A stretch of 63,840 nt of DNA, the filler included, from Craspedostauros australis (lineage: Eukaryota), in assembly GCA_030167865.1 (NCBI GenBank). It is 16 parts of 16 records of this genome, joined end to end, with 100 filler letters (N's around TTAATTAATTAA, not from the genome) between each part and the next. Parts side by side here need not be neighbours in the genome. Positions count along the whole stretch, not along the records: positions 14,933 to 17,491 come from JALAGF010000768.1; 15 more parts are not named here. The stretch is one strand, 5' to 3'. The notes under the pieces are model-generated. The model was not told the origin of the DNA. It searched no databases and saw only the letters and a list, made by a program, of their open reading frames with translations. Shown piece after piece: positions 15,447 through 16,152 of this stretch; the first letter of the stretch is position 1; each line of letters begins with the position of its first letter. The position numbers and the translations under genes were made by a program.

Positions 15447-16152
15447 AAGAGTGTGACTACTACCGATTCTCCGTGCGCGGAGCCTTCCAACATGCCCAAT
15501 GCTCTCGGCACGTTTGTCTATCTTGTAGATTGGGTCGTCCGACTATGAGTCGGTACGCTAGATGCTCTCTCGCCACTGTTGTATTCTCTCTCTCTCTCTG
15601 AGAGCACTATCGAAAAATCACAAGGGGAGAGCAAAAGCAAAGTACCATGCCGGGATTCGAACCCGGAACCTCAGTTAGAATTACTGGTGCTCTACCGTTG
15701 AGCTACAGGCGTTGCGATTGCTGATCCGAACACAAGTGACATTTATAGATAGTGGGGGCTACGGGAGAAACGTAATTTGCACTATACGTATTTGTGCTGA
15801 TACTCTTGATATCATGTACTTGCACTACACGATACTCCGCGTTTGATGCATGCTCCGCATTTGACACTCCGTTCATTCAGTACTGGTTCCTACTCCATGA
15901 GTACTTATCACTTGAAGTTCATCTCCTGTATCCATGATCTTGATGCCCTTTGGTCATCTGACCTTTACCTTCTGCTTCTGACATGGAGACAGATGTCAAC
16001 ATGGTGACACGATGACATCCTGTCGACGTCAGTAGGCGTCCTTCTGCTCTCCAGATGTCACATTCCATTGATGATGCAGTAGCCTGTCAGATGATATCGT
16101 CATCTGAGGTTTAGTTGGGAAGTACCTTGAGCTTCGCTCGATACCATACGTT
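15447..16152. mobile_element. LTR-like repeat family A, copy 2 (diverged, with ~200-bp insertion)
   Basis: Aligns by eye to 12140-12387 and to the reverse complement of 17592-17960 either side of 15599-15802. Confidence 0.65.
15642..15712 (-). tRNA. tRNA-like (pseudo-tRNA) Pol III unit inside a small insertion
   Basis: GCCTGTAGCTCAACGGTAGAGCACCAGTAATTCTAACTGAGGTTCCGGGTTCGAATCCCGGCATGGT: intact D and T arms (A/B boxes), broken acceptor stem, anticodon loop AATTCTA lacking U33. Confidence 0.65.

Follow-up and report, generated by a model that had tools for sequence, protein, structure and literature searches.

The locus and its tRNA-bearing LTR

The window analysed in this work, a stretch of 63,840 nucleotides from the diatom Craspedostauros australis (GCA_030167865.1), holds an RRM protein (3267-4913), an APE-type endonuclease (10538-12133) and an ankyrin-BTB protein (28483-30210), a Upf1 region at 43161-46774 with named best hits in the diatoms Pseudo-nitzschia (82%) and Fragilariopsis (79%), an ORF with an RNase H1 N-terminal domain followed by an RVT_1 ORF (51275-57054), a P450 (57606-59168) and a Copia RT fragment (59960-62491). 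Ankyrin-like repeats of 102 bp, and after them a 27-bp Asn-rich tandem array, lie between assembly gaps at 13824-14830. The N gaps themselves (e.g. 12388-12487) consist of N runs separated by an invariant 12-base linker, an assembly artefact which gave rise to the false repeat family D1.

The very abundant repeat family A (659 candidates in the genome) is represented in the window at 12056-12387, 15495-16051 and 17592-18051. The middle copy carries in its (CT)n tract the segment studied here (Table 1). Both this location and the lack of the segment in the two other copies had been proposed in an earlier note on this DNA, and both are borne out, the latter by direct inspection of the sequence (the MAFFT alignment misplaces the left flank). 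Of the borders given there, 15599 and 15802, the right one holds and the left one is corrected to 15597 (family copies start four bases to the left of 15599 minus two). Family A is probably the solo LTR of another retrotransposon. Its copy in locus L007 is about 800 bp long, has TG...CA termini and is flanked by a 6-bp repeat, and tRNA-LTRs are found at or in family A also in L007 and L013. The adjacent region 14934-15492 resembles by eye the 3′ LTR of a tRNA-Asn-primed Copia in L131, which would make the locus a nest of Copia LTR, family A and tRNA-LTR.

Table 1 Features of the tRNA-LTR and its insertion site, in window coordinates
Feature	Position	Strand	Basis
Solo LTR (206 bp) of tRNA-bearing TRIM	15597..15802	-	Alignment of family copies with flanks, TSD; closest other copy 96.6% identical
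5-bp TSD, element 5′ side, differing from the other copy at one base	15803..15807	+	TSD comparison
5-bp TSD, element 3′ side, within (CT)n tract	15592..15596	+	TSD comparison
TATA-like box, about 30 nt upstream of tRNA-like body	15741..15747	-	Motif
Degenerate tRNA-like body; of the types compared, nuclear tRNA-Arg(UCU) is closest	15643..15712	-	Rfam 35.4 bits; score 80 vs next 69, 13 types
Pol III box A	15695..15705	-	Motif
Pol III box B	15653..15663	-	Motif
T4 run, place and length of native tRNA-gene terminators	15633..15636	-	Comparison with native tRNA genes
T5 run in U5, possible further Pol III stop	15613..15617	-	Motif
Host repeat family A, partial copy with approximate limits, insertion target	15495..16051	+	Repeat comparison

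The segment is the solo LTR of a non-autonomous LTR retrotransposon (TRIM) of 662-664 bp, a short non-coding element with two LTRs and with a PBS and a PPT at the ends of its internal region. The genome search with the segment gave 40 scored matches among 99 candidates, all with 93-100% identity and sharp ends, so it is not a chance sequence. In the census of LTRs, 60 BLAST LTR hits in the retrieved loci (identical flanks counted once) were reduced to 52 full-length LTRs by removal of eight partial or N-ended rows. Five paired elements with both outer ends were found, built as LTR (206 bp), internal region (250 bp) and LTR (206 bp), and each is flanked by a perfect 5-bp TSD. The earlier proposal, which saw in the segment the solo LTR of a tRNA-LTR mini-element from a diatom, is thereby upheld, the copy number, paired LTRs, PBS, PPT and TSDs on which it was to be judged all having been found. 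The remaining unpaired LTRs, i.e. those next to neither an exact PBS nor a PPT (39 of the 52), have a perfect 5-bp TSD in 30 cases, one mismatch in two (the window copy among them) and a worse match in seven. Since the internal region has only 11 matches in the genome, solo LTRs predominate, and the window copy would have arisen by LTR-LTR recombination of a full TRIM. LTR pairs that are identical over 205 bases (L008) or 96% identical (L064) indicate recent activity.

The sense of the element is that of its tRNA-like body. The 5′ end of the LTR reads TATCAG in 50 of the 52 copies, the window LTR included, and the 3′ end reads AATA in 24 and TTCA in 23; in the window LTR the 3′ end, which borders the (CT)n tract, has been eroded. 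The single TSD mismatch of this copy (CTCTC / CTCTT) is what CpG decay would be expected to produce, as an empty family A site (L013) reads CTCTCG. A purine tract ending in GGGGAG, the PPT, precedes the 3′ LTR. In one L013 copy (G000:C6680) the 3′ LTR comes after a PBS remnant that is joined to the PPT at a microhomology of 3 bases, and this copy represents an internally deleted TRIM. TRIM copies often lie within the LTRs or pol regions of other retrotransposons (L005, L012, L017, L003, L021 and L063). In L008 (1047-1709, reverse complement) an 8-10 nt motif complementary to the 3′ side of the D-stem of the tRNA-like body recurs in the 5′ part of the LTR, at its 3′ end and again 30-40 nt upstream of the PPT; folding was not beyond that of shuffled sequences.

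The tRNA-like body and its Pol III signals

In the Rfam search of 14500-17000 the tRNA model gave the only match (15648-15707 on the minus strand, 35.4 bits, E 4.2e-05, gathering score 29), so a 5S rRNA-derived LTR segment was not found there, and ARAGORN called no tRNA anywhere in the window. The acceptor stem is poorly paired and the anticodon stem is short; both arms are broken, as had been noticed before, and the body folds no better than its shuffles (z 0.29). The predicted genomic RNA of the TRIM showed no special structure against shuffles either (z -0.27). Boxes A and B are kept and the stems are not. The TATAAAT motif, both boxes and the T4 run that had been read previously on the minus strand are all present at the positions in Table 1. 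Compared with 13 nuclear tRNA types the body comes nearest to tRNA-Arg(UCU) (mean of the other scores 55, sd 10), an assignment that stays tentative because Tyr, Leu, Val, Glu, His and other types were absent from the set. No intact parent tRNA gene with the same A-box/B-box pattern was found, all 39 genome matches to the pattern belonging to the TRIM family.

Native tRNA genes of the nucleus served as the reference for the signals around the body; four AT-rich, tRNA-dense contigs judged to be organellar by their appearance (G000:C5790, C1217, C2472 and C5055) were excluded from the counts. The first run of at least four T after box B is T4 in 25 of 42 native genes, T5 in 12 and T6 in three, and is absent in two; it lies 12-23 nt after box B in most of them, and the T4 run of the LTR lies at 17, so that the cassette is laid out like a whole tRNA gene. 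In the 662-nt sense strand runs of at least four T occur only at LTR positions 167 and 186, both upstream of the PBS. A strict TATA motif was found upstream of five of 41 native tRNA genes and a loose one upstream of 12. Non-CpG minor alleles make up 0.006-0.009 of the bases in boxes A and B among the copies, versus 0.02-0.06 elsewhere; by another measure, none of the 13 subfamily-marking positions falls in the boxes, which is not significant for 22 of 206 bases (P about 0.2). Contigs of one sequencing run (X1, whose kind we guess to be RNA) cover the LTR and the internal region without the flanks of L008, and starts, ends and strand are unreadable from such contigs, which therefore do not count as evidence here; runs X2 and X3 gave nothing. 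The layout of the cassette is consistent with a functioning Pol III unit.

A tRNA-derived SINE, or a MITE with a captured tRNA, would also account for a tRNA-like body within about 200 bp bounded by short imperfect inverted ends. The tRNA is central, however, as the earlier note had already held against a SINE; there is no tail, the TSD is fixed at 5 bp, and the direct-repeat pairs flank an internal region bearing PBS and PPT. A SINE2 would have a 5′ tRNA head, a tail, TSDs of variable length and no LTR pairs, none of which agrees with the family. We consider such an origin highly improbable and reject it on account of the paired elements. Equally improbable is a functional tRNA gene or a source of the primer for the element's own reverse transcription: the Rfam score exceeds the gathering score and promoter and terminator are intact, but ARAGORN is negative, the stems are broken and the box pattern is confined to the TRIM family. 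The tRNA-like body was rejected as the primer, its longest complement within the initial 25 nt of the internal region being 5 nt, as opposed to 14 nt for tRNA-Asn.

Primer binding site, Copia elements and hybrid copies

The 14-nt PBS that follows the 5′ LTR is complementary to nt 27-40, in the anticodon loop, of the nuclear host tRNA-Asn(GUU). From this complementarity we infer half-tRNA priming, in which the 5′ half of tRNA-Asn(GUU) would serve the TRIM as primer. Anticodon-loop or half-tRNA priming is known from copia and Ty5, according to the text of Kojima (Kojima 2024, PMC10886601). A 13-mer of the PBS has 74 matches in the genome (control, 0). The 51 hits inspected, in 50 loci of which two are one place, comprise six tRNA-Asn genes, three TRIMs and 42 members of other LTR families, many with long ORFs. 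In a metagenome scan for box B together with the PBS, none of 118 loci among the matches listed had the 13-nt PBS, and the rows shown resemble prokaryotic tRNA genes.

Several families of coding Copia elements have the PBS of the TRIM, and one of them also has its PPT/LTR junction. This family is represented by L118, which carries RVT_2 in a single ORF of 1814 aa; we take the order of its motifs to be protease-integrase-RT-RNase H. The Pfam search of L118 returned RVT_2 only and no integrase domain, and the integrase is placed before the RT from these presumed motifs and from PF00665, found on some relatives. A single ORF, an RVT_2-type RT and an integrase so placed are the marks of a Copia element. 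The PPT of L118 lies 20 bases downstream of the stop codon, and the locus (G000:C4353) is a tandem Copia array with a 6537-bp unit and shared LTRs. At the PPT/LTR junction 16 bases are identical between the TRIM and the L118 Copia; the junction 14-mer has 11 genome matches, nine in TRIMs and two in this Copia (control, 0). The coding relatives L119 and L135 are 40-67% similar to L118 over pol pieces and less so in gag. Beyond PBS and termini no extended similarity was found between the TRIM and the Copia LTRs or internal regions, among the loci compared, those that precede L118-L137. As to the CoDi group of the helper, the search for relatives returned almost only unnamed matches.

In two hybrid copies the PBS is the exact point of change between TRIM and Copia sequence, in opposite directions and with two different coding families. 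L293 consists of a tRNA-LTR, the PBS and a Copia leader and coding internal region 88-98% like L119. In L066 the 3′ portion of a Copia LTR, 79% like L135 across 260 nt, is followed by the PBS, the TRIM internal region, the PPT and a tRNA-LTR. Of the six TRIM internal regions whose 5′ side is known, one thus carries a Copia LTR, and one of six PBS-flanked tRNA-LTRs leads into Copia. Neither hybrid has a readable TSD (the L293 contig ends in the coding region and the Copia LTR of L066 is cut by family A), and the 3′ junction expected for L293 has no match in the genome.

Proposed mobility, rival readings and known elements

It is very likely that the TRIM is packaged, reverse transcribed and integrated by the tRNA-Asn-primed Copia families. 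Its RNA would be packaged in their particles and primed by the tRNA-Asn half, and the cDNA would be integrated by the Copia integrase. The solo-LTR/TRIM identity and the dependence on Copia, taken as one claim, are held by us with high confidence. Plus-strand transfer by PBS annealing is a normal part of LTR replication, and between unlike co-packaged templates it would yield exactly the hybrid structure seen: plus-strand strong-stop DNA of one element would anneal through the shared PBS to the cDNA of the other.

The hybrids are probably fossils of such co-packaging. They might instead be assembly joins, or DNA-level deletions that joined two neighbouring elements at the 14-bp PBS, and would then say nothing of co-packaging; the assembly is fragmented (6734 contigs), repeats are densely nested, and both hybrids are without TSDs. 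This explanation is nevertheless unlikely, as the two cases run in opposite directions, involve two coding families and both switch precisely at the PBS, and the common sequence is only about 14 bp. In L066, moreover, both sides of the junction are decayed alike (81% and 83.5%) and no Copia match occurs within 1295 bp downstream, and this speaks against both a nested deletion and a misjoin. The transcription of the TRIM is the other point at which two readings meet. In the one which we rate as somewhat probable and prefer, boxes A and B act as an internal Pol III promoter and leaky termination gives both a short RNA and the genomic RNA. In the other, possible but less probable in our judgement, Pol II transcribes the genomic RNA of the same TRIM from the TATA box, with the tRNA cassette as a passenger, an insulator or a separate short Pol III unit. 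The TATAAAT about 30 nt upstream of the body speaks for Pol II, such a motif not being a standard part of tRNA genes in this genome, as does the position of T4 and T5 between the cassette and the PBS. Against it stand the boxes kept with decayed stems, as in Helenus (Kojima 2024, PMC10886601), the lack of T runs elsewhere in the sense strand, although chance could well produce this, and the Cassandra LTRs, reported to hold terminators and yet to give multi-unit read-through RNA (PMC7215508). Pol III is favoured on the kept boxes with decayed stems, on a size within the Pol III range and on the Cassandra read-through precedent; the terminator-like runs ahead of the PBS, the TATA box and the lack of significance in the conservation of the boxes count against it.

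Under Pol III transcription, most transcripts would end at T4 or T5 as a tRNA-like RNA of 80-100 nt. A fraction would read through the 5′ LTR and end only at the corresponding runs of the 3′ LTR; the genomic RNA made in this way would measure about 540 nt, with an R region that begins at the tRNA start and closes with the T run. Since both runs stand between promoter and PBS, a Pol III genomic RNA needs read-through and its full-length yield should fall. As a speculation, the broken acceptor stem may spare the genomic RNA from cleavage by RNase P/Z.

The TRIM is of the known tRNA-bearing kind, Helenus (TRIMp3), in a host group absent from Kojima (2024). As described there, Helenus elements are 311-1263 bp long, with a non-functional tRNA-like sequence bearing boxes A and B in each LTR, a PBS, a PPT and solo LTRs; the boxes are kept while the tRNA is decayed, and Pol III transcription is unproven for Helenus too (PMC10886601). 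Likened by features and not by alignment with a Helenus consensus, the TRIM shares every sequence-testable one: a two-LTR non-coding element below about 1.3 kb, a boxed tRNA in the LTR, PBS and PPT, a TSD of 4-5 bp, and a tRNA-like part that is, judged by sequence only, neither a functional tRNA nor the primer. With the fungal Helenus elements, as far as that account describes them, it also has in common the 5-bp TSD, the anticodon-loop PBS, the Copia dependence and the lack of self-priming; tRNA-Asn-GTT is used as primer once in Helenus, and tRNA-Asn(GUU) here. It differs in its diatom host, in LTR ends of the TA...TA or TA...CA type, and in the link to the helper, drawn from an identical PPT/LTR junction and the two hybrids that switch at the PBS rather than from a shared internal region. 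Terminator placement, described here, does not figure in the Helenus text consulted (PMC10886601).

Hosts in Table 1 of that paper are fungi, animals and Selaginella only; its main text does not contain the words oomycete, stramenopile or diatom, and its supplement, in a file that may be incomplete, returned nothing for diatom genera, Phytophthora or even 'Asn' (PMC10886601). The earlier note had named an oomycete element, Ajax, as the tRNA-derived precedent, which is mistaken: the tRNA-type TRIM is Helenus. Ajax resembles the present element in being a TRIM, in the small-RNA promoter of its LTR and in its 5-bp TSD, but is 5S-derived and found in nemerteans (Kojima 2024, PMC10886601). Cassandra (5S-TRIM), as presented in PMC7215508, likewise has a Pol III promoter and terminators in its LTR and gives read-through transcripts; unlike the diatom element it is 5S-derived, lives in land plants and has a TGG-type PBS, and its transcription has been demonstrated, that of the diatom element being predicted from sequence. 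Copia elements of diatoms (CoDi) are known elements of the helper type (Maumus 2009, PMC2806351), and the searched text of that paper gave no wording for tRNA, PBS, TRIM or solo. For Phaeodactylum 27 putative TRIM/LARD pieces have been listed in a paper whose searched text does not contain 'tRNA' (PMC5859163). Our literature search, with Repbase and most subscription papers outside its range, turned up no published diatom case of a TRIM with a tRNA-bearing LTR.

The TRIM extends the tRNA-bearing kind to stramenopiles and supports the repeated independent origin of TRIMp3, for which several origins have been argued by Kojima; how the dependence of TRIMs on a helper is maintained is not known, according to the same source (PMC10886601). 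Here the helper clade can be named from the PBS, the junction identity and the hybrid copies, and the placement of terminators before the PBS offers a sharp test of Pol III transcription in Helenus-type elements. For annotation, dozens of such LTRs exceed the Rfam tRNA threshold and will inflate tRNA annotation, and TA-ended elements without TGG priming escape screens for TG..CA LTRs. We tentatively suggest, as a wider idea of rather low probability, that this Pol III-type TRIM exploits a whole clade of tRNA-Asn-primed Copia at once, with primer and short LTR ends setting the specificity and LTRs frequently swapped between co-packaged RNAs via the shared PBS. If so, leaky terminators would yield both the genomic RNA and a short tRNA-like RNA, and through PBS-mediated swaps coding Copia elements would gain a tRNA promoter and TRIMs would gain Pol II LTRs.
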